From contig OZ246394.1 of NCBI GenBank assembly GCA_965230895.1, positions 1,313,887 to 1,377,886 of the forward strand: a DNA stretch of 64,000 nt, read 5' to 3'. How positions within the stretch are numbered: position 1 is the stretch's first letter; each line of letters begins with the position of its first letter. The position numbers and the translations under genes are program-made. Positions 1-53,412 of the stretch are shown one piece after another. Source of the DNA: an uncultured Gammaproteobacteria bacterium (GTDB taxonomy: Bacteria; Patescibacteriota; Microgenomatia; Levybacterales; UBA12049). Below the pieces are notes generated by a model. That model worked only from the letters and a program-made list of their open reading frames with translations, searched no databases and was not told the origin of the DNA.

Positions 1-3000
1 TCATATGATGATTGCAATGTATTTGAAGCAGCTGAACATTTGACTACATTATCTGAGCCATCAACACAAAGTGCTGTTCCAAGATCAGTTGTAAGGCCAG
101 TCAATACTAAGAATGAATCAGAATCAGTGTTAACTGTTACATCATTTGTACCATTTGGTGAGAATGTAGAAATACCATTTGCTGTAAATGTCTGACCAGA
201 TGCTATAGTTGCTCCACCATTTGCAGTGATCAAACCAGTAACAGTCAAGGCATTGTTAACAGTTGTTGTCCCAGTTCCTGCCCCAATACTTATTGCTGTA
301 GCAGCGCCGCCGATATTCAAGTTAGTAACGCCAGAATTAAGGAGGTTAAATGTACCAGCGGATGAAGTTAAGTCACCACCATTGATTGCTGCATCTCCAG
401 CAGTTGTTACATTTCCAGTTAATGTTGATGTGCCATCGATTGTGAGGTTGCCATTTGATTGGATATCACCAGCGTTTGAAAGGGTAGTACCAGTTGAACC
501 ATAGCCACCACCAACTTGAAGTGAATTCAATGTCGCTGCAGCACTTGGAGCAGTGAATGAAGTAGCATTTGCGAAGTTAACAGTTGCATTGTTGATTGTT
601 GTAGTACCAGTTGCAGCACCGATTGTAACTGCAGTTGCTGCACTTCCAACGTTCAATGTTGTTGCATTTGTAGTGAACAAGTTAACTGTTGCAGCAGTTG
701 TTGTGATATCTCCACCATTTACAGCAACATCTCCAGCTGTTGTGATATCTCCAGATCCACCAGCGATTGAGAAGTTCGTTGCTGTTACATCATTTGCTCC
801 GAGTGAGAGCGCGTTAACGATTTCAGCATCTGAAAGATCCAAAGCATTTGTGATGCCACCAGCAGCAGCTTGGATCTTGATGCCAGCAGCAACTGCTCGA
901 TTGGTATCTTGGTTATCAACCAAGATCATTTGTGCTGGGTCAGTTGTGCCAGCACCGTTTGCTCGAGTGAATGAAGTGAATCCAGTTGAACCATCAGCAG
1001 TTGTGATGGTGAAGTTTGCATCAGTTGCTGTGTCAGTGAGTGTGAATTCGATGTTTCGTGCATCAGTTGTTGTCAAAGTATTTCCGCCATCATATGCACC
1101 TTGGAGTGTAAATGTTGAAGCAGAACACTTTGTGACATTGTCACTTGCATCAAGACAAAGTGCATTTCCAGCAGTTCCTGGAGTTGTAAGTCCAGTTAAT
1201 GTTAGGAATGAATCAGTGTCAGTGTTGATTGTTACATCGTTTGTGCCATTTGGTGAGAATGTACTTGTACCGTTTGCAGTCAAAGTCTGACCGGTTGGGA
1301 TAGTTGCGCCACCATTAAGTGTTGCAAGGCCAGTTGCATTGAATGCATTATTTACAGTTGTTGAACCAGTTCCAGCACCGATTTGAACATTTGTTGCAGC
1401 TCCAGCAAAGTTAACTGTTGTTGCTCCAGTGTTGAAGACATTTGCAGTTCCAGCAGTTGTTGTGAGTGATCCACCATTGACTGCAACGTTTCCTGATGTT
1501 GTTACATTACCAGTCAAGTTAGAGGTTCCATCAACTGTGAGATTACCGTTTGCTGAAACATCACCATTTGCAGCGAGTGTAGTGCCAGTTGAACCATAAC
1601 CGCCACCGATTGTTACTTGTCCAGCTGTTGCGATATTTCCGTTAGAACCAGTGATAGAGAAGTTAGTTGCTGAGACATCATTTGCACCAAGTGCCAATGC
1701 TGTAACGATATCTGAATCAGACAAATCGATTGCTGTAGTAATACCACCAGCAGCTGATTGGATTCGGATTCCAGCAGTCAATGCTTCATTCACATCAAGG
1801 TTTTCGATCAATTGGAGTTGAGCAGGGGATGACGGATTTGAACCATCAGCCAATCCGAAGTATGTGTACCCAGTTGATCCAGCAGCTGTTGTGATAGTGA
1901 AGTTAGAATCAGTAGCTGTATCTGTAAGTGTGAATGCGATGTCTCGAGCATCTAATGTGTCGATTGTATTTCCACCAACGTAAGAACCTTGCAATGTACT
2001 TGATGCAGCTGAACACTTCGTAACATTGTTACTTGCATCGATACAAAGTTGTGTACCAGTTGCAGTTGCTAATCCGGTGATATTCAAGAATGAATCAGTG
2101 TCAGTGTTGATTACCAAATCATTTGTTCCTGATGGAGTGAATGTTGATTGACCATTTGCTACGAAACTGCCAGTTGTTGTCAAAGTCTTACCACTAACAA
2201 GTGTTGTGTCACCGTTAAGTGTTACTGCACCAGTTCCAGTTGAGAATGTACTTGCACCAGTCTGTGCGATGTTGTTGTTGAATGTCGCAACGCCATCAAC
2301 TGAGAGTGCGTCATTCAATGTTGTTGCGCCATCGACATTAAGTGCTGCATTAAGATTTGTATTACCAGCAACATCAAGTGATGCACTGAATGTTGCATAA
2401 CTTGCAACGCCAAGTTGTCCACCGAGTGAAGTCAAACCAGTTCCAACTGTGAATGTATTTGCGCCAGTTACTGAAGTTGCTCCGTTAAGTGAAACTGCGC
2501 CAGTACCAGTAGAGAATGTTCCTGATCCGCTCTGCGCAAAGTTACCAGCTGTTTGTGTGTATCCAGTAATGTTCTCAAGTGCACCAGCATTTGTGAGTCG
2601 GGAAGTACCGCCAGTGAAGAGAGAACCATCAGTGAGATCAAGGTTAGCAACTTGTCCGCCAGTTGAATTCTCAAGACTGAGTGTTCGAGTTCCGCCACCA
2701 GTGATGTCGAGTGTAGTATTGCCACCAGTGAATGCAACGTTTGTATCAGAGATACTGAGATCTGCAAATGTCTTCGCGCCAGTGAATGTTTGTGTTCCTT
2801 CGAGGAATGCAAATGTACCATTTGTACCAAGATCAGGAAGGGTGTATGTTCGTGAAGCTGCGGGATTAACAGCTGTAACTGTGATGTCATTGCCATCATC
2901 TGTACTTGTTGAACCTTCAAAGACTAAGTTATTGCCCTTGTTTGCACTTGAGTCATTACCAGTGAATGCTGATCCAGTCAAAACATTACCAACACCAGTG

Positions 3001-6000
3001 ATTGTACCAGCGCCAACACCTGATGCTGATTGCCATGAAAGAACACCGTTACCATCTGTTGCCAAAACATAATTTGTACCACCAGCATCTGTTGGAAGTG
3101 TGTAGATGATGTTTTCTGTTTGTGTACTTGCAACGAATGTAGTGGAGTATGCATTATCTCCATCTGAAACGACTGAGAATTGTCCTGGTGTATTTGATGA
3201 TCCAGGAGCGACATCTTCACCGATACTGATTCCTGAAGTATTTAAGAAGTTAACTGCGCCAGTTCCAGCAGCAATTGTGAAGTCAGTGTTTGCAGCGAGT
3301 GTAGTGTCTCCATTAAGTGAGATCGCACCAGTTCCAGTTGAGAATGTTCCAGCGCCTGTGATGTCGAAGTTGCCAGCTGTTTGAGCATAGTTTGTGATGT
3401 TTTCAAGTCCACCTGCATTGGTAAGTCGGGAAGTACTGCCAGTGAAGAGGGAACCATCAGTAAGATCAAGATTTGCAACTTGTCCGCCAGTTGAATTTTC
3501 AAGACTGAGAGTTCTTGTTGCTCCACCAGTGATATCAAGTGTAGTGTTACCGCCAGTCAATGCAATTGCTGCATCAGCCAAGACGATGTCATTAAATGTC
3601 TTTGATCCAGTGAATGTTTGTGAACCTTCGAGGAAAGCAAAAGTACCATTTGTTCCAAGATCAGGAAGTGTGAATGTCAAAGATGATGCTGGATTAACGG
3701 CTGTAACAGTAATGTCGTTGCCATCATTAACTGATGTTGATCCTTCGAAGGTTAAGTTGTTACCTTTTTGTGCACTTGAATCATTACCAGTGAATGCTGA
3801 TCCAGTGAGGACGTTACCGACTCCAACGATTGTTCCAGCACCAACGCCTGCCGCTGATTGCCATGAAAGATTACCACTACCATCAGTTGAAAGAACATAA
3901 TTTGTACCACCATTATCTATTGGAAGAGTGTATGTGATGTCTTCAGTTTGTGTTCCGGTGATGAATGATGTTGAGTATGCATTGTCACCATCTGAGATAA
4001 GTTTGATTGCTCCAGGTGTATTTGAAGTTCCAGATGCGATATCTTCACCAACTGTGATTCCAGCTGCATTTGTGAAGTTCGCTGTACCGTTTGCAATCAA
4101 TGCCCCATTTAATGTCGTTGTTCCAGTGATTGTTGCTGCGCCACCGAGTGATGTCAAACCAGTTCCAACTGAGAATGTGTTGGATCCAGAGACTGAAGTG
4201 TTACCATTCAACGTTACTGCGCCGGTTCCAGTTGTGAATGTGTATGCACCTGATTGAGCGAAGTTACCAGAAAGATCAAGTGTATCGTTGATTGAAACGT
4301 TTCCATCGATGTCTGTAATCTCGCCAGATGTTGCAATTCTCAAACCAGTTGTTGCTGATCCAAGATCAACGATGTCATCAAGGACGACATTGCCACCACT
4401 GTTTGCGATTGTGCCGTTCAAGTTCAAGTTGTCAGCGATACTTACATCACCATCAATATCTGAGATAGATCCAGCAGTTGAGACCCTCAAACCAGTTGTT
4501 GCTGAACCGATGTCAGTTGTGTCATCGAGAACCAAATTGCCAGCACTGTTTGAAACAGTTCCTGTCAATGAAAGATTTCCAGTAATTGAAAGGTTATCAT
4601 CAACATTCAATGTGTTTTCAGAGAGATCGGAGAGGGAACCTTCTATTTGGAGATTACCTGTTCGGCCGATGTTCAAAACAGTTGTTCCTGATGCAGATGC
4701 AGTCAATATATTTTGATCACCAGTTTCATTCAAGATAACGAGTGCTTTGCCAACTTGAGATCCTGTGACATTTAATGTGCCATCACCTTGTGTTACTGAT
4801 CCGAGTGTTGTTCGGCCACTTACTGTGAAGTCGCCAGTGACATCAGTGTTGTCATTCAAGTTCAAGCTTGAATTACTGTCTGAGATTGCGCCGGTTACAA
4901 CCAAAGTGCCATCAACGATGGTGTTGTCGTTCAATGTTAAGTCTCCATCAATGTCTGAGATTCCACCTGTTGGAGTAATTCGGATACCTTGTGCTGCTGA
5001 ACCGATGTCAGTTGTATCGTCAAGAACCAAGTTACCAGCACTGTTTGAAACAGTTCCGGTGACAGTTATATTGTCATCGATTGCGACAGTTCCGCCAGCA
5101 TTAATGTTGAGTGTTGATTGATTTGAAGTGATGTCGCCACCGTTAACTGCGATGTCACCTGAGGTTGTGACATTTCCAGTCAATGTTGATGTGCCATCGA
5201 TTGTTAAGTTACCATTTGCTGAGACATCACCGTTGGAAGCAATTGTTGCGCCAGTTGATCCGTATCCACCAGCGAAGTTTGTACTTGCAGCGCCGCCGAT
5301 GTTTACGGTTGTTGCAGTGGAGTTGAACAGGTTAGCTGTTGTTGCATTTGTTGTGATTGATCCACCATTAACTGCAAGGTTTCCTGCAGTTGTGACATCA
5401 CCAGTTAATGTAGAAGTACCATCAACTGTTAAGTTGCCATTTGATTGGATGTTGCCATTACTTGAAAGGGTAGTGCCAGTTGAACCATATCCATTTCCGA
5501 CATTAACTGCATCGATTGCCAATGTTGCTGATCCAGCATTGATTGCAGTTGCATTTGGAAGACTGAGTGTTTGATTGTTAATTGTAGCTGTTCCAGTACT
5601 TGCTCCGAGAACAAGTGAAGTAGCAGCGCCACCAACGTTTACTGTTGTTGCAGTACCATTTGCGATGTTGAATGTTGAAGCGTTTGTTGTGATGTCTCCA
5701 CCGTTTACTGCAACATCGCCTGATGTTGTGATGTTACCAGTCGCAGTAATAGTTCCTGAAGTTGAAATGTTACCGGTTGCACCAGCGATAGAGAAGTTTG
5801 TAGCAGCTACATCATTTGCACCGAGTGAGAGCGCATTGACGATATCAGCGTCTGAAAGATCAAGAGCATTAGTGATACCGCCAGCAGCAGCTTGGATCTT
5901 GATACCAGCAGCAACTGCTCGATCAGTATCTTCATTATCAACCAAGATTAATTGTGCTGGATCATTTGTACCGACGCCATCAGCTCGTGTGAATGATGTA

Positions 6001-9000
6001 AATCCAGTTGAACCATCAGCTGTTGTGATAGTGAAGTTCGCATCAGTTGCAGTGTCAGCTAATGTGAATCCGATGTTTCGAGCATCTGTTGTACTAATTG
6101 TATTGCCGCCGTTGTATGCTGATTGCAAAGTGATTGATGCAGCTGAACACTTAACGACGTTGTCACTTCCATCGACACAAAGTGTACTTCCAGTTGCAGT
6201 TGTCAAACCAGTTACTTGCAAGAATGAATCAGTATCAGTGTTGATGACAACATCGTTTGTACTGTTAGGGGAGAATGTTGATTGTCCATTTGCTGTGAAT
6301 GTTTGGCCAGTTGCGACAGTTGCACCACCGTTTGCTGTGAACAATCCAGTTGCTATTGTTGTGCCATCAACCAAGAGATCATTGTTAATGTTTGTTGTAC
6401 CAGTTCCAGCACCGAGTGAGATTGCTGTAGCAGCTCCAGCGATGTTAACAGTGGTCGCATTCGCGTTAACCAAGTTGAATGTTCCTGCAGTTGTTGTTAA
6501 GTCTCCACCATTGATTGCGACGTCTCCGCTAGCCGTGACATTGCCAGTTAATGTGGAAATACCATCAACAGTTAATGTGCCATTTGCTTGGATGTTTCCT
6601 GCATTTGAAATAGTGACACCTGTTGAACCGTATCCGCCACCGACTTGTAAACCATCGACTCTAGCGAGAGCAGTGAGCGCATCAAATGCAGTTGCATTTG
6701 CAAGGTTTACAGTTGCATTGTTAAGGTTCATTGTGCCGGTTGCAGCGCCGATGTTAACAGTTGTAGCAGCGCCACCAACATTGAGTGTTGTAGCAGTTGC
6801 ATTGAACAAGTTTGCTGTTGTTTGTGTTGTTGCCAATGTACCTGAATTTGCATTGATGTTACCAGTTGCTGTAACTGTTCCTGATGTTGTGATGTTTCCA
6901 TTTGAACCATCGATTGAGAAGTTTGTCGCTGCAACATCATTTGCACCGAGTGAGAGAGCGTTAACGATATTTGCATCAGACAAATCGATTGCAGTTGTGA
7001 CAGCTCCACCTGAAACTCCAGCGATTCGCAAAGCAGTTGGAAGTGCTCGGTTAACATCTTGGTTTTGGATCAAAACTAATTGTGTAGGATCTGCTGCGCC
7101 AGCGCCATCAGCTCGAACGAATTGTGATCCACCAGTTGAACCAGTTGCAGTTGTCACAGTGAAGTTGCTGTCAGTTGTTGTATTTTCCAAAGTGAATGCG
7201 ATATCTCGTCCATCAGTTGAATTGATTGTGTTTCCACCATTGTATGCAGATTGCAAAGTGATTGAATCAGCTGAACAGACTGCAACTGTGTTACTACCAT
7301 CGATACAAAGTGCACTTCCAGTTAATGTTTGCAGTCCAGTGATAGTAAGGAGTGAATCAGTGTCAGTATTGATGGTAATGTCATTTGTGCCATTTGGTGA
7401 GAATGTACTTCCGCCATTTGCGATAAATGATTGACCTGATGCGATTGTTGCACCGCCATTAAATGTAGCCAAACCAGTTGATGTTGTTGTGCCATCAACG
7501 AGCAAGTTGTTATTTACATTTGTTGTACCAGTACCAGATCCAATTGAGAGGGCAGTAGCAGCACCAGCGAAGTTTACAGTTGTAGCATTTCCATTAACCA
7601 AATTGAATGTTGTTGCAGATGTTGTAAGGTCTCCGCCATTCAATGCAATGTCGCCAGTTGCAGTAACATCACCAGTCAAAGTAGAAGTACCATCGATGAT
7701 CAAATTGCCATTCGCTGAGATGTTGCCATTGTTTGCAAGTGTAGTTCCAGTTGATCCATAACCGCCACCGATTGTTACTGAATCAATTGTCAACGCAGCA
7801 GATCCAGCATTGATTGCTATAGCATTTGCGAAGTTAATTGTCGCATTGTTGATGTTTGCAGTACCAGTGTTTGCACCGATGTTCAATGTCGTAGCAGCGC
7901 CACCAACATTGAGTGTTGTTGCATTTGTATTGAAGAGAGCAGCAGTTGCATTGGTTGTTGTAAGATCTCCACCATTGACTGCAACATCTCCAGCAGTTGT
8001 GATGTTTCCTGTACCACCAGCGATAGAGAAGTTCGTAGCAGCAACGTCATTTGCACCGAGTGAGAGGGCATTAACGATGTCAGCATCTGAGAGATCCAAA
8101 GCATTAGTTATGCCACCAGCTGCAGCTTGGATCTTGATGCCAGCAGCGATTGCTTCATTACTGTCAGCATTTTCAACTAAGATAACTTGGCCAGCTGGTG
8201 CACTGTTTGTGCCGTTAGCCAAACCGAAATATGAGTATCCTTCTGAACCAGCAGCTGTCGTGACGGTGAAGTTAGCATCAGTTGTTGTGTCAGACAATGT
8301 GAACGCGAGATCTCGGCCATCTGTTGTGTTGATTGTGTTTCCACCGTTGTATGCAGATTGCAATGTAACAGTATTTCCTGAACACTTTGTGACATTGTTA
8401 CTACCATCAACACAAAGTTGTGAACCAGCTGATACTGGAGTTGTAAGTCCAGTAAGTGTTAAGAATGAATCTGCATCAGTGTTAATTGTTACACCATTTG
8501 TACCATCAGGTGAGAATGTTGATTGACCATTTGCTGTTAATGTCTGACCAGTTGCGACAGTTGCACCGCCATTGAATGTAGCGAGACCAGTTGCTGTTGT
8601 AGTGCCATCAACCAAGAGATCATTGTTAACGTTTGTTGTACCAGTTGATGATCCCAAGTTAACGACTGTCGCAGCACCAGCGATATTTACAGTTGTAGCA
8701 TTTGTATTAAAGAGGGAAGCAGTACCAGCTGTTGTTGTGATATCTCCACCATTTACAGCGGCATCACCAGCAGCAGTAACATTACCAGTTAATGTAGAAG
8801 TTCCGTCGATGGTGAGATTGCCATTTGCTTGGATGTTTCCAGTGTTAGATATTGAAACTCCAGTAGAGCCATATCCACCACCAACTACGAGTGAATCAAT
8901 TGTCAAAGCAGCAGATCCAGCATTGATTGCTGTCGCATTTGGAAGTGACAATGTCGCATTGTTGATGGTCATTGTCCCAGTGTTTGCTCCAATTGCGAGT

Positions 9001-12000
9001 GTTGTAGCAGCGCCGCCGATGTTCAATGTTGTAGCATTTGCATTAACCAAATTGAATGTTCCAGAAGTTGTTGTGAGGTCTCCACCGTTGACAGCAACAT
9101 CACCAGCTGTTGTTACGTTACCAGTCAATGTTGAAGTACCATCGATTGTGAGATTACCATTTGCTTGGATGTTGCCAGCATTAGAGATGCTAACTCCAGT
9201 TGATCCATAACCTCCACCGAGAACTGCACTATCAAGTGTTGCAACTGCGCTTGCTGCATTGATTGCAGTTGCATTTGGAAGTGATAGGGTAGCGTTATTG
9301 ATTGTTGCTGTACCTGTACTTGCACCGATGTTCAATGTTGTTGCAGCACCAGCGAAGTTAACTGTTGTTGCATTTGCATTGAGGAGATTTGCCGTTGTTG
9401 CAGTTGTTGTGATTGAACCACCATTTACAGCTACATTTCCACCAAATGTTGCAGCACCAGTTCCGAGGAATGAATATGTCGGGTTAGTTGTTGTGTTACC
9501 AAATGAGATGTTTTCTGCTCCATCAGTTGTGTTGATGTTGATGTAGTTGTTTGAACCTTCTTGGATGTCGAATGCATCTGCATTGTTATCAACCAAATTC
9601 GCAGTCAAGTTATTATTCAATGTTGTTGTACCACTTCCAGCTCCAAGTGTGATTGCAGTTGCGTCACCGCCAATGTTCAAAGTCGTAGCATTTGCATTAA
9701 AGAGGGAAGCAGTACCAGCTGTTGTTGTGATATCACCACCATTTACAGCAACATCACCAGCAGTCGTGACGTTACCAGTTAATGTTGAAGTGCCATCGAT
9801 TGTGAGGTTACCGTTTGCTTGGATAGTTCCAGCATTACTGATTGAAACGCCAGTAGAACCATAACCGCCACCGATTGCTACAGAATCGATAGTTAATGCT
9901 GCATTTGCTGCGTTGATTGCAGTTGCATTTGGAAGTGACAATGTTTCGTTATTGATTGTCATTGTGCCAGTACTTGCACCGATGTTGATTGCAGTTGCAG
10001 CTGCACCGATGTTCAAAGTCGTAGCATTTGCATTGAAGAGGGAAGCTGTTGCATTTGTTGTTGTTACGTCGCCGCCGTTGACAGTAACATCACCAGCTGT
10101 GGTGATGTTACCATTGCCACCATTGATTGAGAAGTTGGTAGCAGTGACATCATTTGCACCGAGTGATAGTGCATTAACAATTTCAGCATCAGACAAATCG
10201 ATTGCAGTTGTGATACCACCAGCTGCTGATTGGATTCGGATGCCAGTTGAAAGTGCTTCGTTGACATCAAGGTTCTCAACCAAAACCAATTGGCTAGGGG
10301 ATGTTGTGTTTGTGCCATTTGCCAAACCGAAGTATGAATATCCAGTTGAACCAGCAGCTGTTGTGACTGTGAAGTTACTGTCAGTTGTTGTATTTGCGAG
10401 TGTGAATGCGATGTCTCGTGCGTCAGTTGTGGCGATAGTATTGCCGGTGTTATATGCCGCTTGCAAACCGAATGGAGCACCGTTACAAAGTGTTACTGCA
10501 TTTGAACCATCAAGACAAAGTGCATTTCCAGTTGCTGTTGCGAGACCAGTCAAGATAAGTGATGAATCAGTATCCGTATTGATTGTTACATCATTTGTGC
10601 CACTTGGTGAGAATGTACTTGCACCATTTGCAGTGAATGTCTGACCAGTTGCGACTGTTGCGCCACCATTGAATGTAGCCAAACCAGTTGCAGTCAACGC
10701 ATTGTTTACAGTTGTTGTGCCAGTTCCAGCACCGAGTGAGATAGCTGTTGCTGCGCCACCGATATTCAATGTCGTTGCATTTGTATTGAAGATGCTTGCA
10801 GTTCCAGCTGATGTTGTGATGTCGCCACCATCAACTGCGAGATCACCAGCAGTTGTGACATCCCCAGTTAATGTAGATGTACCATCGATGATCAAGTTAC
10901 CGTTTGCTGAGATGTCACCGTTGTTTGCGAGAGAGATTCCTGTCGAACCATAACCTCCACCGAGAACTGAACTGTCGATTGTTGCAATTGCATTTGCTGC
11001 ATTGATTGCAGTAGCATTTGGCAATGATAGGGTAGCGTTATTGATTGTCATTGTTCCTGATGCAGCACCGATGTTGACAGTAGTAGCAGCGCCACCAATG
11101 TTCAATGTGGTTGCTGTTGCGTTGAACAAGTTTCCAGTTGCTTGCGTTGTAGCCAAAGTACCTGAATTTGCATTGATGTTGCCAGTTGCAGTGATAGTTC
11201 CTGATGTTGTGACGTTCCCGTTAGAACCAGTTACTGAGAAATTAGTACCAGTGATGTCATTTGCGCCGAATGCTAATGCAGTGCCAATTTCAGCATCTGA
11301 GACATCAAGAGCAGTAGTGATACCACCAGCAGCTGATTGGATTCGAAGACCTGTTGCCAATGCATCATCAGTATCAGCATTTTCGATAAGGACTAATTGT
11401 GCTGGGTTTGTACTGTTTGCGCCATCAGCCAAACCGAAGTATGAAGATCCAGTAGAACCAGCTGCCGTTGTTACTGAGAAGTTGGAATCAGTTGCTGTGT
11501 TTGTTAAGTTGAATGAAATATCTCTTCCGTCAGTTGTGTTGATTGTATTTCCACCATCATATGCTGATTGCAATGTAATAGAAGCAGCAGAACATTTAAC
11601 GATGTTGTCAGCGCCATCGATACAAACTGTTTGACCAGTTGCTGTTGTAAGTCCAGTTACTTTCAAGAATGAATCTGCATCAGTGTTGACTGTTACACCA
11701 TTTGTGCCATCTGGATTGAAAGTTGATTGACCATTTGCAGTTAATGTCTCACCCGTTGCAACTGTGATTCCATCATTTGCAGTGATTAAACCAGTTGCAG
11801 TCAATGCATTATTAACTGTCGTTGTGCCGGTTGCTGCTCCGATTGAGAGGGAAGTAGCAGCACCAGCGAAGTTCACAGCAGTTGCATTTGCATTAACCAA
11901 ATTGAATGTTCCAGCAGTTGTTGTAAGATCTCCACCATTTACAGCAACATCACCAGCAGTTGTTACATTTCCAGTTAATGTAGAAGCGCCATCAACAGTT

Positions 12001-15000: not shown

Positions 15001-18000
15001 GTTGCACCACCATTGAATGTTGCAAGGCCAGTGACATTCAATGCATTGTTCACTGTTGTTGTACCAGTCCCTGCACCGATGTTTACTGAAGTAGCAGCGC
15101 CGCCAATGTTCAATGTTGTAACACCAGCATTGAGCAAGTTAAATGTGGTTGCACTTGAAGTTAAGTCACCGCCATTGATTGCAAGATCACTTGCAGCAGT
15201 AACATTTCCGGTTAATGTAGAAACGCCATCAACAGTTAATGTGCCATTTGTTTGGATGTTGCCATTGTTTGCGATAGTTGCACCAGTTGAACCGTATCCA
15301 TCACCGACGTTTAATGCATCGATGTTTGCAGTTGCTTGCAATGCATTGATTGTTGTTGCATTTGGAAGTGATAGGGTAGCGTTTCTTATTGTTGTTGTAC
15401 CAGTTGTTGCACCGATTGTGATTGCAGTACCAGCACCACCGATATTCAATGTCGTTGCATCGGTATTGAAGACATTTGCAGTTCCAGATGTTGTTGTGAT
15501 GTCTCCGCCATTAACTGCGATATCACCTGAAGTGGTGATTTGCCCAGTTGATCCTGTGATACTGAGTTGTGTTCCGACGATGTCATTGTCACCGAAGTCG
15601 ATTGCGTTGACGATGTTTGCGTCAGAAAGATCAATTGCTGTAGTGACGTCTCCTCCAGTAACGCCAGCGATTCTCAAACCGACTGGTAATGCTCGATCAG
15701 TATCAAGATTTTGGATCAAGACTAATTCACTTGGATCATTTGTTCCTGACCCATCAGCCCTTAGGAATTGAACATTTCCAGTTGAACCAGTTGCTGATGT
15801 TACAGTGAAGTTAGAATCAGTTGCAGTATTTGTCAAAGTAAATGCGATATCTCGTGCATCTGTTGTATTGATTGTGTTTCCGCCGTTGTACGCAGCTTGC
15901 AGTGAGAATGTTGCACCACCACATTTTGTGACATTATCACTTGCATCAAGACAAAGTGTTGTACCAGCAACTCCTGGAGTTGTAAGTCCAGTCAAAGTGA
16001 GGAATGAATCACCATCAGTATTGATTGTGACGCCAGTTGTTCCAGCAGGTGAGAATGTTGATTGGCCGTTTGCATCAAATGAATCATTTGCAGTTAATGC
16101 TCCTGTGAATGTACCAGTTCCAGTTACTGCCAAATCATTGTTTACAGTTGTTGTACCAGTAGCAGCGCCGAGTGAGATAACTGTTGCAGCTCCACCAATA
16201 TTTACAGTTGTTGCATTTGTGTTGAAGAGGGACGCAGTGAGAGCTGTTGTTGTGATGTCTCCACCATTTAATGCCAAGTCACCACTTGAAGTGATGTTTC
16301 CAGTTAATGTTGATGCACCATCAACTGTTAATGTGCCATTTGCCTGGATGTTTCCTGCACTTGAAAGTGTAACGCCAGTGTCACCATATCCACCGCCAAC
16401 TGCGATTGAACTAAATTGTGCAGCAGCATTTGGAGCATTAAATGATGTTGCATTTGCAAAGTTGATTGTCGCATTTCGGATGTTTGCAGTTCCAGTTGTA
16501 GCACCGATTGTGAGTGAAGTAGCAGCGCCACCGATATTCAACGTTGTTGCATTGCTGTTAAAGATATTTGCACTTGATTGTGTTGTGGTGATGTTGCCAC
16601 CATTGACTGCGATGTTTCCTGCTGATGTGATGTTTCCATTTGAACCATCAACCGAGAAGTTTGTACCAGTGATGTCATTTGCACCAAGTGCGATTGCAGT
16701 AACGATTGAAGCATCTGAGACATCAAGTGCAGTTGTGATTCCGCCGCCGCCAGTTGATGAAATTGTCAAACCGATAGGGAGGATTTGATCTGAATCAGCA
16801 TTATCGATAAGAACCAATTGTGTTGGATCATTTGAACCGACTCCATCAGCTCTTATGAATTGTGTGCCGCCAGTTGAACCGGTTGCAGTTGTGACGATGA
16901 AGTTGGAATCAGTTGCATCATCGGAAAGATTGAATGCGATGTTTCGGCCACTTGTTGTGTTGATTGTGTTACCAGCATCATATGCTGATTGCAATGAGAT
17001 TGAACTGTCTGCACACTTAACGACATTGTTACTGCCATCGATACAGACGACATCTCCAGCTGCAGTTGTGAGTCCTGAAACGTTCAAGAATGAATCAGCA
17101 TCGGTTGTGATGTTTACACCATTTGTTCCTGATGGATTGAATGTTGATTGACCGTTTGCAGTGAAGTTAGCATTTGCTGTTGTGTTGCCAGTGATTGTTA
17201 ATGCATTGTTGACAGTTGTTGTCCCAGTTCCAGCACCGATGGAGAGGGTCGTTGCTGCACCAGCAAAGTTCACAGTTGTTGCATTTGCGTTGATCAAATT
17301 GAAAGTAGGGGATGTCGTTGTAAGATCTCCACCGTTCAATGCCAAGTCACCAGCTGAAGTGATGTTGCCAGTAAGTGTCGAAGTGCCATCGATTGTGAGA
17401 TTCCCGTTTGCTTGGATCGTTCCTGCATTAGAGATTGAGACGCCAGTAGAACCGTATCCGCCACCAAGGTTTGCTGCATCAAGTGTTGCAAGTGCGCCGC
17501 CAGCATTGATTGCAGTTGCATTTGGAAGTGAAATTGTTTGATTGTTGATTGCGATTGTTCCAGTACTTGCTCCGACATTGATTGTGGTTGCATCGCCACC
17601 AAGGTTCAACGTCGTGACATTTGTATTGAACAAGTTACCAGTTGTTTGTGTTGTTGTTATGTCGCCACCATTAACTGCAACGTCACCTGATGTTGTGATA
17701 TCTCCACTTGCACCAGCGATAGAGAAGTTAGTCGCAGTTACATTGTTTGCACCAAGTGATAATGCATTAACGATTTCTGCATCTGAAAGATCAAGAGCAT
17801 TTGTGATACCACCAGCTGCGGATTGGATTTTGATGCCAGCAGCAACTGCTCGATCAGTGTCCAAATTATCAACCAAGATCAATTGTGTTGGATCAGACGT
17901 TCCAGCACCATTTGCTCGTGTGAATGATGTAAATCCAGTTGAACCATCAGCCGTGGTGATGGTGAAGTTTGCATCAGTTGCAGTGTTGGCAAGAGTGAAT

Positions 18001-21000
18001 GCAATATCTCGACCATCAGTTGTGTTGATTGTATTTCCACCAGTGTATGCAGATTGGAGTGAGATAGCATCAGATGCACATTTGTTGATTTGGCCAGTAC
18101 TGTTGTCGACACAAACCAACAATCCATTTGGTGCAGCATCAAGTCCTGTGACATAGAATCCAGAATCTGTATCAGTGTTGATTGTGACATTTCCTGTACC
18201 AGCTGGAGTGAATGTACTTGTACCATTTGCAGTCAAATCATTATCAACTGTCAATGAATTGTTGATTGTTGTCAGTCCTGTGTCATCTCCAATTGAAACG
18301 ACTGTTGCATCTCCGCCGATGTTCAATGTCGTAGCGTTTGCATTAAAGAGGGAAGCGATGCCAGTCGATGAAGTTGTAATGTCTCCACCATTTAATGCCA
18401 AATCACCACCTGATGTGATGTCTCCAGTTAATGTTGATGTACCATCAATGATTAAGTTACCATTTGCAGAGACATTACCTGTATTTGTAACTGTCAAACC
18501 AGTTGATCCATAACCATTTCCAACGTTCAATGCATCAAATGAAGCAGTTGCAGAATTTGCATTGAATGTTGTTCCGAGGAATGAAACAGTTGCATTTCGG
18601 ATTGTTGCAGTACCAGTTGTTGCTCCGATTGAGATTGTTGTTGCTGCACTACCGATGTTCAATGTTGTTGCATTAGCATTAAAGATACTTGCAGTTCCAG
18701 ATGTTGTGGTGATGTCTCCGCCGTTCAATGCCAAGTCACCACCTGATGTGATGTTTCCTGTACCGCCAGCGACTGAGAAGTTAGTTCCTGAAATATCATT
18801 TGCACCAAGTGCGATTGCAGTGACGATAGATGCATCTGAGACATCAAGAGCAGTAGTAATTCCACCGCCACCTGATGAGGAAATTTTAAGTCCAATTGGC
18901 AAAACTCTGTCGGTGTCTGCATTATCGATAAGTACTAATTGTGCTGGATCATTTGTACCTGAACCGTCAGCACGGACAAATTCAGTTCCACCTGTTGCTC
19001 CATCAGCCGTGGTGATAGTGAATTTAGAATCAGTAGCAGTGTCAGCGAGTGTGAATGCGATGTCTCTATTATTTGTTGTGGTGATTGTGTTACCTCCAAC
19101 ATATGCAGATTGGAGTGAGATCGCATCAGCTGCACACTTTGTAACCTGACTTGTTCCAGCATCGATACAAACGAGTGTACCTGAAGCTGTTGGCAAGCCA
19201 GTTATGATCAATGGAGAATCATTGTCAGTGTTAAATGTGATTGAACTTGTGCCAGCTGGATTAAAGACGACATTGCTGTTTGCAGTGAGATCACCTTCAA
19301 CAGTAAGTCCATTGTTCACGGTCGTTGTACCTGTATTTGCTCCGATTGAAAGGGTAGTAGCTGCGTTACCGATATTCAATGTGGTTGCATTTGCATTGAA
19401 TATCGAAGCAGTTCCAGCAGTTGTTGTAATGTCTCCACCGTTTACTGCGAGATCTGCTCCAGCTGTCACATTGCCAGTAAGTGTAGAAGTGCCATCGATT
19501 GTGAGGTTGCCATTTGCTGAGAGATTACCAGTGTTGGTGATACTCAAACCAGTTGATCCATAGCTTCCGCCAACTGAGAGTGAATCAAATGAACCAAGCG
19601 CAGATGATGCATTAAGAGCTGTTGCGTTAGGGAAGTTGATAGTTGTACCTCTTATGTTACCGGTACCGGATGTCGCACCCAATGTATATGTCGTAGCAGC
19701 ACCACCGATATTCAATGTGGTTGCATTGGTATTGAAGATAGTTGCAGTTCCAGTTGTTCCGGTTGTGATGTCATTGCCATTGAGAGTCAAGTCTCCATTT
19801 GAAGTAATACTTCCGGTTGCTCCATCGACTGAGAAGTTAGTCCCAGCGATGCCACTGACACCGAGTGAGATACCGGTAACGATGGTTGGATCAGAGAGAT
19901 CAATACCTGTTGTTATGCCGCCACCGCCTGATGATGAGATAGTCAAACCGACTGGAAGAACTCGGTCAGTATCAGCATTGTCGATAAGAACGAGTTGGGT
20001 AGGATCGTTTGTGCCATTGCCATCTTCTCTGATGAATTGTGTACTTCCGGTTGAACCTGATTCTGTTGTGATGACGAAGTTTGCATCTGTTGCAGTGTCA
20101 GTCAAAGTGAATGCGATGTCTTTTGCATTTGTTGTTTCGATTGTGTTGCCTCCATCATAAGCAGATTGGAGTGAGATAGCATTGGATGCACATTTGGTGA
20201 TTTGATCTGTGCCATTGTCGATACAAACCAAGTTACCAGTAGCTGTTGGCAAGCCAGTGACATAGAGCCCTGAATCAAGATCAGTGTTAAGAATAATGTC
20301 GTTTGTACCTGATGGAGTGAGGGTTGTTTGACCAGTGACCAACAAGTCATCTGAAACAGTAAGGTTATTGTTGATTGTGGTTGTACCTGTATTGGCACCG
20401 ATATTCAAAGTCGTTGCAGCCCCAGCAAAGTTCACTGTCGCTGCGGTTGCATTGATCAAGTTAAATGTTGTTGCACTGGTTGTAAGATCTCCACCATTCA
20501 AAGCCAAGTCTCCAGCTGAAGTGATGTTTCCTGTAAGTGTTGATGTACCGTCGATGATCAAGTTACCATTTGCTGAGATGTTGCCAGTGTTTGTGAGTGT
20601 AGTACCAGTAGAACCATAGCCTCCACCGATTGTGACTGAATCAATTGTCAAAGCTGCTGATCCTGCATCGATTGCCGTAGCATTTGGAAGTGAGAGGGTA
20701 GCATTGTTGATTGTCATTGTGCCACTTGCTGCTCCGATATTTACAGAAGTAGCAGCGGCACCAATGTTTAATGTTGTGACGTTTGCATTGAATACGTTGC
20801 CAGTTCCTGCAGTTGTAGTCAAACTGCCACCATTTACAGCGACGTTTCCAGCTGAAGTGATGTTGCCGTTGGATCCGTTAACTGAGAAGTTTGTACCTGA
20901 GATGTCATTTGCGCCAAGTGCAATTGCAGTCACGATCGTTGGATCAGAGACATCGATTGCTGTTGTGACGCCACTTGTACCTGATGATGTAATTCTCAAA

Positions 21001-24000
21001 CCGATAGGGAGGATTCGATCAGCATCTGCGTTGTCGATGAGGACCATTTGGTTTGGATCTGAAGCGCCAACACCATCAGCTCGGATGAATTCTGTACCAC
21101 CAGTTGATCCTGTAGCAGTTGTGATGATGAATTTAGAATCAGTTGCAGTGTCGGCTAATGTGAATGAGATGTCTCGTCCATCAGACGTTGTAATAGTATT
21201 TCCACCATCATACGCTGATTGCAATGTTGAAGCTGATGGAGGACATTTGACGACATTGTCTGAAGCATCAATACAAAGTGTACTGTTGGATGTCATTGGT
21301 GTTGTCAATCCAGGAAGGTTAAGGAATGAATCAGCATCTGAAACGATTGTGACACCATCAGTACCTGATGGTTGGAGAAGCACTGCGCCATTTGCTGTGA
21401 AGTCACCATTTGCTGTTGTGTTGCCAGTGATAGTCAATGCATTGTTTACAGTAGTTGTGCCAGTTGCTGCTCCGATTGAAAGAGTAGTAGCAGCACCACC
21501 GAAGTTCAATGTGGTAACGCCAGCATTAAGTAAGTTGAATGTCGAATCGTCTGATGTTAATGATCCGCCGTTGATTGCCAAAGTTCCAGCGAGGACGCCG
21601 TTATTGTTGATTGTGGTTGTTCCTGTGTTTGCTCCAATATTAACTGAAGTAGCATCTCCACCCAAGTTGAGTGAAGTAGCATTGGTATTGAATAAGTTCA
21701 CTGAAGAAGCAGTTGTGGTGATGTCACCGCCATTGACTGCGATACTGCCACCAAATGTTGCGAGTCCAGTACTGTTGAAGGAGAAGGTTGGATTGGTTGT
21801 CATGTTACCGAAAGCGATGTTCTGTGCTCCGGTTGTTGTGTTAACTGAAATGTAATTGTTTGCGCCTTGTGTAACTGAGAATGCATTTGCAAGGTTATTG
21901 ACGATGTTGTTTGAGATTGTGCTTGAAGCACCATTAGCAGTGAGTGTGACGTTAGTGCCATTGATGTTTACTGCGTCTCCGCCATCTCCGACATTTGAAA
22001 TTCCATTTGAGTTGAATGTGCCACTGACGACCAAGTCATTATTGATTGTAGTTTCTCCGGTTGCTGCACCGATTGAGATTGTTGTTGCATCTCCACCCAA
22101 GTTAATTGTTGTCGCACTTGTATTAAAGATAGAAGCTGCACCTGCATTTGTCGCAAGCACACCAGAGTTAGCGTTGATATCACTATTAGCAGTGATACTG
22201 CCAATTGTTGCAAGGACACCGTCCTCATCAATTGTGAGTGAAGGATTGCCTCCAGATTGGATGGAGAGGGCAGTGTTAGCAGTTCCAACGTTTGTGTCAT
22301 TTATGACGATTGCTGTTCCAGTTCCAGCATTAACGACGTTGAAGCCAGTAGCATTACCGTTGTTTGTTAAGTTGAATGAAGTTGCTGTTGTAAGTCCAGA
22401 TGACAATGTGAAGTCGATACTTCGGTTGTTTGTTGTAACGATAGTATTGCCGGTGTCATATGCTGATTGGAGACCGAATGGTGAACCACTACAATAACCC
22501 AAAACATTGTCATCATCAAGACAAAGTGCTGTACCTGTTGTTCCGCCTGTTGATTGCAAACCGTTAATGGTGATTGTTGAATTGTTATCAGTTTCGAAGA
22601 GGATATCATTTGTGTCATCTGGAGCAAAGACGGCTGAACCACTTGCATTGAAGTTTGTCCCTGCAACGACGTTAACTCCACCGTTGAATGTCGCTAAGTC
22701 AGTCACATCAAGTTGTCCACCGAGTGATGTTAATCCAGTTCCGACAGTGAATGTATTTGCTCCAGTCACTGCTGTTGCTCCATTGAGCGAGACTGCACCA
22801 GTTCCAGTTGAGAATGTACCAGCACCAGCTTGAGTGAAGTTAGCATTTGCATTGATGTCACCGCCAAAGGTTGCTGCTCCAGTACCGAGGAAGTTAAAGA
22901 TTGGATTGGTAGCTGCATTACCAAGTGCGATTACTTCAGCTCCATCAGTCGTGTCGATGTTGAAGTAGTTGTTGGTACCTTCTTGGATATCGAGAGCATC
23001 AGTTGCATTGTCGGTAAGGTTTGCTGTGATTGTTGAACCATTCAATGTCAAAGCATTTGCATCGTTTCCAGCTGTAAATGATCCAGCACTTGCAAGTGTT
23101 GTGTTGCCAGTTGATGAAAGGGTAGTGAAGGCAGCAGTTGACGGAGTTGTTGCTCCGATTGCTGTACCGTTGATGCCTGTTGCTGTAACGTTGAGATTTC
23201 CAGAAGTTATCAACAAGTTATTCACACCAGTGTTGATAGATGAGGCTGAGAGGCCTGAAAGGTTCAAAGCACCTGAGGTAGCAGTCAAGTTCAAAGCTCC
23301 AGTTGTTTGGGTAAATCCGTTTGAAGCAGTAAGGAGTCCAGCAGATGTGATAGCGCCAGTGCCAGTTGTACTCAAGTTTCCTGAAGTTGCAAGGTTTCCA
23401 TTCTCATCAATACTCAATGTTTCAACGCCACCTGATTGGAGAACGAGAGACTTGTTTGGAGTTCCGACGTTTGTGTCATTGATGATGAATGCACTTGCTG
23501 CACCTTGATTCTCAAGCGTGAATGAAGTGTCAGTCGCAACATCAGCCAAGGTGAATGATATATTTCGAGCATCAGTTGTAACGATTGTGTTGCCAGTGTT
23601 ATATGCAGCTTGCAAACCGAATGGAGCACCGTTACAAAGTGCCAAGTTGTTACTGCCATCAATACAAAGTGCGTTTCCAGCAGTTGTTTGGAGACCGTTA
23701 AATTGGACAGTTGAATCAGCATCCGTATTGAATACAACGTCATTTGTGCCACTTGGAGCGAATGTTGCAGCTCCACTAGCATTGAGTGCTTGTCCATTGC
23801 TGACAGTGACACCACCATTGAATGTAGCGAGGCTCGCAACATCAAGTGTTGAGTTAAGGTTTGTCGCGCCAGTAACTCCAAGTGAACCACCAAGCGTGGT
23901 AGCACCGGTTCCGACTGAGAATGTGTTTGTGCCAGTGACTGAAGTATTTCCATTCAAGCTGACGTTACCAGTACCTGTGGAGAATATATTTGCACCTGAT

Positions 24001-24500
24001 TGAGTGAAGTTACCGTTTGCAGCGATATCTCCACCAAATGTTGCTGTGCCAGTTGTGACTGTAAATGCATTTGAAGCGGTAAGGAGTCCAGCAGAAGTGA
24101 TAGTTCCAGTGCCAGTTGTACTGATATTGCCTGTTGTTGAGAGTGTACCAAGTTCATTGATGGTCAAAGTCGTTGAACCGTTATTTCGGATATCAATTGC
24201 AGTTCCAGTTGCCCCGTTTGTGTTATCAAGGACAAATGCACTTGCTGTTCCTGCATTGGTTAAGGTGAATGAAGCATCAGTAGCTGTGTCAGCGAGTGTG
24301 AAAGCGATATCTCGGCCATCAGTTGTGGTGATAGTGTTGCCAGCGTTATATGCTTGCTGCAAGGTTACATTCAGTGCATTGGAAGAACAGATAGCGAGTT
24401 GGTTGTCTGAGTTTCGGCAAACAACTGTACTGCCAACATTACCTGAAAGGGTAGGTACTCTGACTAAATCATTGAGGATTATTTCGCCTGAAGCACTTGC
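1..24500 (-). repeat. Coding tandem repeat array inside the giant gene. The period is about 1.05-1.1 kb (about 350-370 aa), with at least 22 copies and an internal half-period.
   Basis: The plus-strand antisense ORFs repeat the motif ...PVEPYPPPT... about every 1.05-1.12 kb (ends at 7761, 8880, 9864, 10953, 12060, 16380, 17460, 18513, 19563, 20619). On the minus strand each unit contains the run LC.DGSDNV.KCS..S..LQSAYNGGNTI..TD.RDIAFTL.DTATD.NFT.TTA.GSTG... followed by ...NGGDITT...TTLNIGGAATTLNIGA.TGT.TINN... Many nucleotide k-mers longer than 30 nt are shared between copies. Confidence 0.85.
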
Positions 24501-29897: not shown

Positions 29898-30110
29898 GTG
29901 TTTTACAAGATAAGTTCGAGAGCTAGAGGATTTAGGCTTATAAAAATATAAAACTCTAGCCTTATCTAACTTTATTATTATTAATATAGGTAGTCAAGTA
30001 GGAATTTACATGTTTCTTACGTTGAAAAGACTTAGAGTAAATTGCTCAACAATAGCCTGAGTAGGGAATTGATATATTTTGAAGCTTTATAGTGCGATTT
30101 TATATCATCA
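29898..30110 (-). promoter_or_regulatory. Probable promoter and 5' leader of the giant gene. It lies in a very AT-rich spacer.
   Basis: It sits directly upstream of the first in-frame ATG. The stretch 29940-29990 is extremely AT-rich (TATA-like runs). There is no obvious Shine-Dalgarno sequence. Confidence 0.3.
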
Positions 30111-31318
30111 AAAAAACAAATGTAAGAAAATGCATTTTGTAAATAATTTTACAGCTCAATTCACGGATAACAGCCCAAAATGGCGGAGTAATTTAGTTTT
30201 TAATATACCGTGATTATTTAGGAACTTGTGAAACAAAAATGTGAAAAGAAAAGACAACAAAAACACGAAAATTAGCATTTCTATAACTTTTCATATTTGT
30301 CTATAGTCATGAATACTGAGTCACACTACAGACAGTAGGGTGTTTTGGCAGAATTTATGCTGTTATGCTAATGATTTTTATGAGTGATTTAGATTGATAT
30401 TTCAGTATTTATTGAATGAGTATACTTCATAAAGTAAAGTGGTTTCTCAAAGTGTTCAAAATCCTCATTATTTAGCCTCAAAAAGTGGACAAATGACGGA
30501 GGCGTTTTACTATAGCAACTTAATGTAATAAATTAGTCTTGATTTTGAAAGTATTCTCAAGCATATGAATTCGGACGTCATAGAATCGCTTATTAGCTAT
30601 GTAAAAGGCGATAAGACGACCATTTCATCGTTTCTTAACACACTTTTTTTTGAAACAGTTTGTTCAGTGAATGGAGTTGCTTTTCTTTAGAACCGTTAGC
30701 GTAATGTACTTTACTACATAAAGCAGAAGAGATGGGAAGATCCTGTGGCCTCAGTGTTTTCCACAGCTGCTTGTCTCCCTAGAAGAAACTCCTCTAAATG
30801 CGCTAAGGCCCATAGGGTATTTATCCACATCCCATAACAAAAAAATGTGGAGAACTGTGGAAAGATTAATGGTTTTAAGCCTGAATAGGTGTATCTTAAT
30901 CTGGCTACAGAAGGCAGTAGTGGAACGCCTAGCCTCAAAGTGTTTTGCTACAGGATAAATATGATATGAATAGATGCTATTTGAGTTCGTCGTCTTTTCT
31001 GTTTTCACATAAAGAATAATTTCTGGATAAAAGTGGGTTGAGATTGATGTAAAAAAATCTTCTCTCAATATTTCGTTGCATTGTTTTGTATACATTTTGT
31101 CTAATGCTTTCAAATCATTTCAGTGAATTTAAGTTTGGGAGTAGGGGTTATTAATTATGGATCAAGAAATATTATTAAATGAGGCTATGAGTGTATGCAG
31201 GAGAAATTGCAATTTAAATAAGAAGCCTGGAAAAGTTGTTAGTCGTTAACCCTTTATTATTAATAATTTTATTCAATAATAGATGAATAGACTGATATTA
31301 TTAGTTAATTCTGTTGCA

Positions 31319-31630
31319 TTATTTCTTTTGTTGAGGTGGTGAGCTTTTCTGCCCAGGGCCTATTTCTTCTATTAACAATGTCTCAATGCCGAGAAACACA
31401 TGGACTTCATCTTTTTTAACCTTCATAACTGCTTGCTCAATTTTTAATTCCTTTACTTTCTGCTTCTGGTTATAAACATCTAATTGTGTGTGGATAATAG
31501 AGATGAAGTTCGCATGTTGAGGGTAAACATCGAACTTACCGACTTCATTAAACGATGTAATACGCTCAGCTTCGCCTTCATAAATGATGTTTTCGGTGTC
31601 TTCAACAATTACTTTAAGGGGGACTGACAT
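31319..31630 (-). CDS. atpC: F-type ATP synthase epsilon subunit
   Basis: A 103-aa protein that is the last gene after atpD. The N-terminal beta-sandwich-like sequence (KVIVEDTENIIYEGEAERITSFNEVGKFDVYPQHANFISII) fits epsilon. Confidence 0.7.
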   Translation of the reverse strand: MSVPLKVIVEDTENIIYEGEAERITSFNEVGKFDVYPQHANFISIIHTQLDVYNQKQKVKELKIEQAVMKVKKDEVHVFLGIETLLIEEIGPGQKSSPPQQKK

Positions 31631-31672
31631 ATTGTTAGGGTATCACGAAGCGAATATGGTGTACAAGCTTTA

Positions 31673-33166
<1,494 letters not shown>

Positions 33167-33172
33167 TTATCG

Positions 33173-34066: not shown

Positions 34067-34071
34067 AGTAT

Positions 34072-35553: not shown

Positions 35554-35555
35554 AG

Positions 35556-36718: not shown

Positions 36719-36762
36719 AGTTATCTTATTTTAGCAGAAATCGGGAAGCTTTGACGCTTGGT

Positions 36763-37569: not shown

Positions 37570-37602
37570 ACTATTATAGTAACATACTAGAAGGATACTA
37601 GA

Positions 37603-38352: not shown

Positions 38353-38444
38353 TTATATATGGTAGCATGAAATCGTAAATGCGAAAACGGTTATAGTAAT
38401 TCTATTACATTCTGAACTTGTGAAAAGTAGAGGTTAGAGTATTT

Positions 38445-50620: not shown

Positions 50621-50682
50621 AGTTCAGTAATTCCTTAGTATATTTTCCTTGAAGATTTTTGTGGTGTTTTCGTGGCTTACTG

Positions 50683-53258: not shown

Positions 53259-53316
53259 TAGGCTACTAGTATACCATTTGCGTTAGCCTTGGTCAAATTG
53301 GTATAATCATCGGTAC

Positions 53317-53390: not shown

Positions 53391-53412
53391 CTTAAGATTA
53401 GCAAACCTCATT

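Follow-up and report, generated by a model that had tools for sequence, protein, structure and literature searches.

The window analyzed here, a 64,000-nucleotide stretch of contig OZ246394.1, carries on its minus strand a giant gene that is intact over the 30 kb that lie within the window. Its product is built from repeated units, each a Cys-containing "head" domain followed by shaft modules that are homologous to phage tail fibers, and it begins with a helix-turn-helix-like domain and a predicted membrane anchor. We read the protein, with moderate confidence, as a membrane-anchored, tail-fiber-like surface fiber of Levybacteria-like Patescibacteria (candidate phyla radiation, CPR) that is probably homotrimeric and would contact other cells. 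Much of bacterial diversity falls within Patescibacteria, and attachment to other cells is believed to be the way of life of most of them; to our knowledge, little is established about the molecules with which they make first contact.

A single giant gene

Six-frame translation gives a minus-strand frame, 3–29993, that runs for 9,997 codons without a stop and is open at the left edge of the window. Its first ATG is at nt 29897, which places at least 9,965 codons within the window. The same start base was called independently on a Logan contig (SRR14271372, locus L001) that is 100% identical to window 28643–39564. Because the frame has no stop and leaves the window at its left edge, what lies here is the opening 9,965 codons of a single gene, and the repeats within it are no free-standing array.

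3–29897, minus strand: single giant open reading frame (ORF), a stop-free frame with its ATG at 29897 and its 3′ end outside the window, to the left

An alternative genetic code was considered and rejected, as table 11 yields zero stops over the 30 kb. We also rejected the plus-strand ORFs across 553–26106 as real genes, given that they lie antisense to the giant frame and use TTG or GTG starts. There are more than 20 of them (160–619 aa, e.g., 5575–7434), which poses a risk of mis-annotation; they look like shadow ORFs arising from the codon composition of the repeat.

Modular anatomy of the repeats

The repetition stands out clearly against a control region: window 1–30000 holds 6,709 pairs of shared 12-mers and 755 pairs of shared 20-mers, versus 75 and 0 in 30001–60000. 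Within 1–24500, 6,489 of 6,494 repeat offsets are divisible by 3. The offsets pile up at ∼1.08 kb and its multiples (2.1–2.2, 3.2, 4.3, and 5.4 kb), as the initial annotation of this DNA had anticipated for a dot plot. Tandem Repeats Finder (TRF) at default settings reported only a 336-nt sub-period and missed the 1.08-kb one, which exceeds its upper limit of 500.

We mapped the modules with hidden Markov models (HMMs) built from full units, locating heads by regular expression (regex) and HMM matches, and aligned 11 full units for the consensus and identity figures. A unit consists of a head (142 aa) and two shaft modules, B1 (112 aa) and B2 (96–116 aa). The head reads C-X9/10-C, LQxAY..GNTI, FxRADG...QLVLIxN...GGITTAxDxSDAxIV...GANDIxGTNFS, and the alignment, a translation of the minus strand, reproduces the peptide consensus proposed earlier. 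The two sub-repeats once assigned to each unit are alike only over their first ∼50 aa (GDxAxNGGDxTT...NATTLNIGGAATxxxIGAxTGTxxxxN); the LSLPNATA...GGGYGSTG segment is confined to B1.

The window contains 23 heads, the last cut by its edge, at nt 27524, 26483, 26003, 25046, 24419, 23666, 22523, 21275, 20225, 19169, 18113, 17045, 15953, 14861, 12713, 11624, 10517, 8414, 7307, 6179, 2045, 1157, and 68. A regular in-frame repeat is therefore present as first described, but the count of at least 22 in 1–24500 is too high (19 heads lie there, three of them divergent and one edge-cut), and the array is not limited to that interval, as its heads reach nt 27524. The seven N-proximal heads are divergent and irregularly spaced. 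A unit of ∼1.05–1.1 kb throughout was likewise only partly right: the period holds, but just 11 units are canonical head-B1-B2 (350–376 aa each, ∼1.05–1.13 kb). The others have a mosaic structure with additional B modules, and 3.1 kb consists of a different sequence. Two double-length units, of 716 and 701 aa, contain additional B modules but only one Cys pair each. The protein as a whole is rich in Thr, Gly, Ala, and Asn. From the N-terminal to the C-terminal side, the minus-strand features are as follows.

21276–27524, minus strand: N-proximal part with seven divergent heads at a spacing of 160–416 aa (regex and HMM matches, alignment)
14862–21275, minus strand: six canonical head-B1-B2 units of 350–364 aa, heads at 21275, 20225, 19169, 18113, 17045, and 15953 (positional orthologues in L002, 88–94% aa identity)
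12714–14861, minus strand: irregular 716-aa unit, head-B1-B1-B2-B1-B2, one Cys pair (HMM map; a 718–740-aa unit at the same position in L003, L004, L005, L008, L013, and L019)
10518–12713, minus strand: two canonical units, heads at 12713 and 11624 (HMM map and L002 orthologues)
8415–10517, minus strand: irregular 701-aa unit, head-B1-B2′-B1-B1-B2, which holds the 336-nt TRF period (orthologous 686–720-aa unit in other genomes)
6180–8414, minus strand: two canonical units, heads at 8414 and 7307 (HMM map and orthologues)
5160–6179, minus strand: truncated unit, head-B1 plus B1 fragments (HMM map)
2046–5159, minus strand: non-unit stretch, aa 8279–9316, with no match to the unit HMM
69–2045, minus strand: head-B2 unit (head 2045) and canonical unit (head 1157) (HMM map; orthologues in L017)
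3–68, minus strand: start of the next head with Cys pair C9976/C9986, cut by the edge (HMM/regex)

A second repeat type can be read from the sequence inside the fiber, as two copies of 276 aa at nt 2454–4046 on the minus strand (YTLPxDxGGTNYVLxTDGxGxLSWQS ... TLPDLGTNGTFAFLEG). It had no family match, the homologues retrieved by search were all short pieces of genes from the same family, and the AlphaFold model of nt 3249–4046 is unusable (pLDDT, the per-residue confidence score, of 51). Shorter motifs related to it, ATLPALxxxDTFVF.NQxQTLxNK, occur at aa 950 and 1783.

A conserved Cys hairpin in every head

All 52 Cys residues of the window protein fall into 26 local pairs with spacings of 3–11 residues, and at least 118 residues separate any two pairs. 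C-X9-C or C-X10-C is present in every one of the 23 heads, a slightly wider spacing than the CX8-9C first proposed, and homologues from other genomes have the same pair before almost every LQxAY..GN motif. The conservation of one pair per head, which the initial annotation had emphasized, is thus upheld.

In an AlphaFold model of a single chain (aa 4272–4701), both Cys residues sit on the two strands of a β-hairpin (E44–47/E53–56), and the Cys hairpin of the next unit is predicted again within the same model (E408–411/E417–420). These hairpins and a short helix on LQSAY are the only elements that DSSP assigns. With both Cys on hairpin strands, a cross-strand disulfide in the head is plausible.

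Age, orthology, and assembly of the array

The initial annotation held that the copies have high nucleotide identity and that their number may have collapsed in assembly. Neither idea is supported. The 11 canonical units share 61–71% of their DNA positions (mean 66.5%) and 55–72% of their amino acids (mean 63%). No exact DNA repeat exceeds 39 nt, and shared 30-mer pairs number only 48.

A scan for the head motif, with each species represented by one genome, gave 62 loci. The closest (L002/L011) lies on the 1.32-Mb contig CAZDOJ010000001.1 and is colinear with the window, L002 showing 77–82% DNA identity over ∼18 kb. The best match of each window unit is the unit at the same position in L002 (77–94% aa), and the second-best is its positional counterpart in loci L003/L013/L017 from Levyibacteriota metagenome-assembled genomes (MAGs; 65–78% aa); the best paralogue within the window never exceeds 69% aa. 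The series of head-to-head distances, ∼350, 352, 352, 356, 364, 364, ∼718, 364, ∼372, ∼710, ∼369 aa, recurs in at least six sets of loci (L002, L003, L004/L012, L005, L008, L013, and L019), and the unit order is shared with at least five other Patescibacteria genomes. Differences in module number are found N-proximally, where equivalent heads are separated by 381 + 416 aa in the window versus 449 + 810 aa in L002. Because unit order and irregular units are common to these loci, the array is older than the species that carry it and has not been homogenized.

This bears directly on whether the 30-kb ORF could be an assembly product in which copies were collapsed, expanded, or shuffled. Fragmentation does occur in short-read data: related genes in metagenomes lie mostly on 1–4 kb contigs, L001 covers just the first 1,254 nt of the giant gene (its end lies in a nonrepetitive part), MAG contig JBPOIT010000009.1 begins inside its copy, and the frame of L002 breaks within its most self-similar unit. 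Against these stand the divergence of the copies, 29,991 nt without a stop or frameshift, the strong purifying selection between positional orthologues described below, and the recurrence of unit order, irregular units included, in independent assemblies of other species, a pattern that collapse or shuffling during assembly would fail to produce. We consider an artifact very improbable; the array is ancient, it is stable, and its copy number has not collapsed. Assembly can get such arrays right, and since the copies are old and diverged, orthologous unit order can serve as an assembly check.

Two observations concern the related contigs themselves. Coverage or strain variation are possible causes of the break in L001. 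The frame breaks at 13321–13513 in L002 and 15640–16874 in L008 probably stem from errors in assembly or sequencing and not from real pseudogenes.

Full length was estimated by aligning window unit 2907 to residue 1956 of the L002 frame and by using the L002/L011 contig coordinates. In L011, the orthologous frame stops at locus position 16501–16504, having passed through 8 further heads and then ∼2,130 aa of C-terminal sequence that lacks heads. The orthologous gene would then span ∼51.6 kb and encode ∼17,200 aa, ∼3.9% of its contig. If the layout is the same, with head spacings chained through L017 and L011, the window protein would measure ∼17,100 aa, ∼12 further heads would lie left of the window edge, and window 3–29897 would be the first ∼58% of the gene. 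The head-free region is probably the distal tip of the fiber. An FN3-like stretch, a coiled coil, and a weak Phage_cement_2 match occur in this C-terminus (L011 10802–16501), as do two copies of a "DLAExY...GRVPxKVSTENGxIxxGDYLTSS" domain.

Selection on the giant gene

The ratio of nonsynonymous to synonymous substitution rates (dN/dS), calculated by the Nei–Gojobori method for the window versus L002, is low in both regions compared and in every module.

aa 2907–5044: dN 0.071, dS 0.74, dN/dS 0.096
aa 5761–7562: dN 0.145, dS 0.95, dN/dS 0.152
By module: head dN/dS 0.11, B1 0.12, B2 0.14

Differences between the window and its orthologue are spread evenly along the unit with no hypervariable patch, and the most conserved stretch is LQxAY..GNTI. 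The gene is under strong purifying selection, and neither head, B1, nor B2 shows any sign of the diversifying selection that had been raised as a possibility. A gene that would take up ∼4% of a ∼1.3-Mb genome, is held by purifying selection, and keeps the order of ∼35 units between species argues for an important, length-dependent function.

We also rejected the gene as a target of an Mtd-like diversity-generating retroelement, in view of the even variability and of the lack of a reverse transcriptase among the window ORFs scanned. Mtd_N is absent from the window protein and is present only in distant proteins with B modules.

Shaft modules of tail fibers and a head of Patescibacteria

Repeat segments matched no family in Pfam or NCBIfam, even at E 0.1, and the unit profile gave only noise against PDB sequences (HSP70 at E 0.53). 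The B modules do have relatives. They match an annotated tail fiber of Synechococcus phage BUCT-ZZ01 (48% over 169 aa, E 4e-19), other cyanophage tail or virion proteins, and phrog_4527, a "short tail fiber protein" (E 1.4e-6; the PHROG tail-fiber matches are weak). They also match hundreds of metagenomic proteins, many of which carry Mtd_N (PF18454) or Peptidase_S74 (PF13884).

The head is far more restricted. A search of 1.84 billion protein clusters retrieved 339 representatives at E ≤ 0.001; the 50,697 phage genomes searched gave no match, and the 2.9 million IMG/VR contigs yielded just one, 34 residues long. Records that carry it are titled Levybacteria/Levyibacteriota, Saccharibacteria, Amesbacteria, Doudnabacteria, Veblenbacteria, Kerfeldbacteria, or "Patescibacteria group". 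Many head-carrying third-party annotation (TPA) assemblies bear the generic title "uncultured Gammaproteobacteria", and we did not take those titles at face value. As judged from these matches, the head family is rare and restricted to Patescibacteria MAGs.

Four shorter relatives (P0016, P0129, P0179, and P0195) combine heads with a C-terminal Peptidase_S74. S74 is an intramolecular chaperone that drives the trimerization of tail fibers and endosialidases, and the joint occurrence of S74, head, and B modules in these proteins therefore places the same modules in proteins expected to be trimeric fibers. In P0016, P0129, and P0195 the Cys hairpin stands immediately before the SDxRLK start of S74, and in the first two its sequence is that of the window (...TGLxTxxGxxLCIDxSDxVxKC). 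Being the last element before S74 in these three proteins, the hairpin can end the mature fiber. The "disulfide-stapled cap" of the initial annotation accordingly finds backing in the AlphaFold hairpin and is cap-like in these short relatives. P0016 has a signal peptide, and its neighbors are cellular genes (response regulators, ribosomal proteins).

These relationships could also mean that the giant gene is a prophage or phage tail-fiber gene rather than a cellular one. Its B modules match phage tail fibers and PHROG tail families, some relatives carry Mtd_N or Peptidase_S74, and a tyrosine recombinase gene lies beside a tRNA gene at 49736–50620. No structural, packaging, or lysis genes adjoin it, however, and no phage morphogenesis genes were found among the window ORFs scanned; upstream on the same strand lies the ATP synthase operon (atpC, atpD, atpG, atpA, atpH). 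The helix-turn-helix (HTH) and transmembrane (TM) anchor described below is not a feature of virions, the head is absent or nearly so from the phage collections, several genomes have kept an orthologue of the gene, and a gene of some 51 kb, if our length estimate is right, would exceed most phage genomes. We regard it as highly improbable that this is a phage or prophage gene and prefer a cellular fiber.

An N-terminal helix-turn-helix and membrane anchor

Ahead of the array, the protein has three further parts.

29712–29861, minus strand: MerR/excisionase-like HTH, N-terminal, predicted cytoplasmic (Pfam MerR_1, HTH_17, phrog_66)
29409–29456, minus strand: single hydrophobic TM segment LAITTTILLVLGLVGI, the presumed membrane anchor (read from the sequence; equivalent stretch in homologues)
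27525–29405, minus strand: pre-array region, aa 197–823, predicted extracellular, with Cys pairs C353/C356 and C695/C706 (sequence)

The HTH matches Pfam MerR_1 (PF13411) at E 4e-4 with 20.9 bits, just under the curated cutoff of 21.6, as well as HTH_17 and the excisionase family phrog_66 (E 3e-6). Orthologue fragments P0259–P0264 have precomputed PF13411 matches. An N-terminal profile found only MerR-family chains in PDB (MtaN, RacA, SkgA, EcmrR), all weak (E 0.2–0.7). The HTH and TM segment are 40–55% identical in metagenome fragments, the homologue search having returned only short fragments of the same family, and are kept in full N-termini of MAG homologues labeled Levybacteria, Amesbacteria, and otherwise, from several Microgenomates-type lineages. 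The start of the pre-array region (SKLKLTGNV...APNVxY) is also kept in homologues, and Saccharibacteria homologues have a plain signal anchor in place of the HTH and TM segment. By its sequence, then, the giant protein appears to be tethered by an HTH and one TM helix in the topology of ToxR/CadC or RodZ.

Such a topology raises the reading that the protein is mainly a contact sensor, in which the fiber passes binding or tension to a membrane-tethered MerR-like HTH that alters transcription, either acting on DNA in the manner of ToxR/CadC or after release by proteolysis. Among distant homologues, no other part of the cytoplasmic segment is as well conserved as the HTH, and an HTH followed by one TM segment and an extracellular domain is the established layout of bitopic one-component regulators. 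The assignment of the HTH is nonetheless marginal in the window protein, as the Pfam and PDB scores above indicate; the analysis identified neither a DNA target nor a protease site nor a regulated gene; and HTH domains of the RodZ type bind proteins, not DNA. We give the sensor reading little credence as the main function and retain adhesion as the more probable one.

Fold, assembly, and proposed role

The initial annotation described the repeats as a β-solenoid fiber. A Thr/Gly/Ala/Asn-rich extracellular protein of the fiber type is consistent with our results; a monomeric solenoid is not supported by them. The single-chain model of aa 4272–4701 has a pLDDT of 81–89 and no intrachain β-ladders, and without stacked ladders a monomeric solenoid is unlikely and a trimeric fiber is the better reading. 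A ladder-free monomer may well be how one chain of an intertwined trimer tends to look when it is predicted alone.

Under the solenoid alternative, the chain would fold by itself as a β-solenoid or β-helix adhesin, and the Cys hairpin would cap each solenoid segment. In keeping with it are the Thr/Gly/Asn/Ala-rich composition and short alternating motifs, the N-terminal membrane anchor with a presumed extracellular location, and the C-terminus of the orthologue, which has no S74 match. Set against it are the missing ladders and the failure of the repeats to match any β-helix family (e.g., Pfam Beta_helix, pectate-lyase-like, haemagglutinin repeats), even at E 0.1. We judge a monomeric solenoid unlikely, while giving it more weight than any other alternative considered here.

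Several points also weigh against the homotrimeric, cell-contacting fiber that we prefer. The structural model is of moderate quality (predicted template modeling score 0.47, from a 27-sequence alignment), so the absence of ladders could reflect a poor model, and the model had no match in PDB or BFVD. The last 1,900 aa of the orthologue in L011 give no PF13884 match, and the window does not include the C-terminus. Pfam and NCBIfam scans found no catalytic or binding domain across the window part of the protein. Many Patescibacteria inhabit anoxic environments, a point against disulfide formation. Finally, several of the best-matching MAGs are among those titled "uncultured Gammaproteobacteria", and the taxonomic call rests on the named Levybacteria and Patescibacteria records and on genome size.

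With these reservations, we suggest the following arrangement. The N-terminus would be cytoplasmic and, past a single TM helix, ∼10,000–17,000 residues would lie outside the cell. By analogy with the S74-bearing short relatives, the chains, probably three, would run parallel as an intertwined homotrimer. The B modules would form the shaft, as in phage tail fibers, and the heads would be nodes at regular spacing, about every 360 residues, each with a disulfide hairpin as a local staple. The T4 long tail fiber rises by roughly 0.05–0.06 nm per residue. On that rough scale the window part would extend ∼0.5 μm and the full protein ∼0.9 μm, several diameters of an ultra-small cell. Its likeliest job would be to extend to a host or partner cell, or to a surface, and to bind and hold on to it. 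A bolder version, which we offer as a long shot, is a ∼17,000-residue, near-micrometer homotrimeric "super tail fiber" made from phage parts and a new disulfide-stapled head and tethered to a DNA-binding HTH, such that contact with the host would be both mechanical capture and a transcriptional signal.

Genomic surroundings

Between atpC and the giant gene lies a 1.4-kb, AT-rich interval (29898–31318, GC ∼0.34) that has no ORF longer than 120 aa, matches nothing in Rfam, and lacks a terminator-like site. A promoter and terminator scan upstream of the giant gene gave no more than a shuffled control; the interval may hold the promoter or leader of the gene. Elsewhere in the window are housekeeping genes, for MurD, FtsH, Fpg, a 5′–3′ exonuclease, UppP/BacA, an XerC/D-like protein, RadC, and a histidine kinase. 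A tRNA-Ile gene with anticodon UAU (50682–50755, minus strand), an uncommon bacterial route to reading AUA, is located just downstream of the tyrosine recombinase gene. Two tRNA-Met(CAU) genes on opposite strands stand head to head at 53187–53391, just upstream of murD.

Comparison with known systems

The order of HTH, single TM segment, and extracytoplasmic domain is that of ToxR/CadC and RodZ. The giant protein differs in its HTH, which is MerR/excisionase-like and not of the OmpR or XRE type, and in its outer part, which comprises ∼10,000 aa or more of fiber. With trimeric autotransporter adhesins (YadA/BadA) it would share a long fiber with periodic head-like nodes and stalks, used for adhesion. 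Unlike these, its anchor is an N-terminal TM helix and not a C-terminal outer-membrane β-barrel. No Pfam matches to YadA-like anchor, head, stalk, or neck domains were found in the window protein or the orthologue C-terminus, and the only link is a nonsignificant BFVD match to a phage "YadA domain protein" (E 0.38).

Giant membrane proteins have been proposed to serve host attachment in Vampirococcus, a CPR predator, with proteins of up to 4,163 aa in V. lugosii (PMC8080830), and a similar attachment or host-interaction proposal exists for Omnitrophota proteins of up to 85,804 aa (bioRxiv 10.1101/2023.11.21.568195). The protein described here resembles these in being very large, membrane-associated, and repeat-rich, here within the tiny genome of a patescibacterium, and in its proposed attachment role. 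It differs in having no WD40, PKD, integrin, fibronectin, or SecA-like domains and no multiple TM regions. Instead, it is made almost wholly of one tail-fiber-like unit, and its probable length of ∼17,000 aa would be far above that of the Vampirococcus proteins.

The protein also resembles S74 tail fibers and tailspikes (endosialidase, T5 L-shaped type) and cyanophage fibers, with which the B1/B2 shaft is homologous and to which the short relatives add S74 itself. The C-terminus of the orthologue differs from S74 fibers in its lack of an S74 match. In contrast to phage tail fibers, the giant gene is cellular and chromosomal, its product has an N-terminal HTH and TM membrane anchor and is 10–30 times longer, and it repeats a Cys-hairpin head that is missing from phage collections. 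We found no account of this protein family in the literature searched; its HTH-TM-fiber architecture and its head are undescribed in the libraries (for the head, Pfam, NCBIfam, and PDB) and literature that we searched. The Cys-hairpin head is thus an undescribed domain, and the protein that carries it represents a cellular reuse of phage tail-fiber shaft modules.

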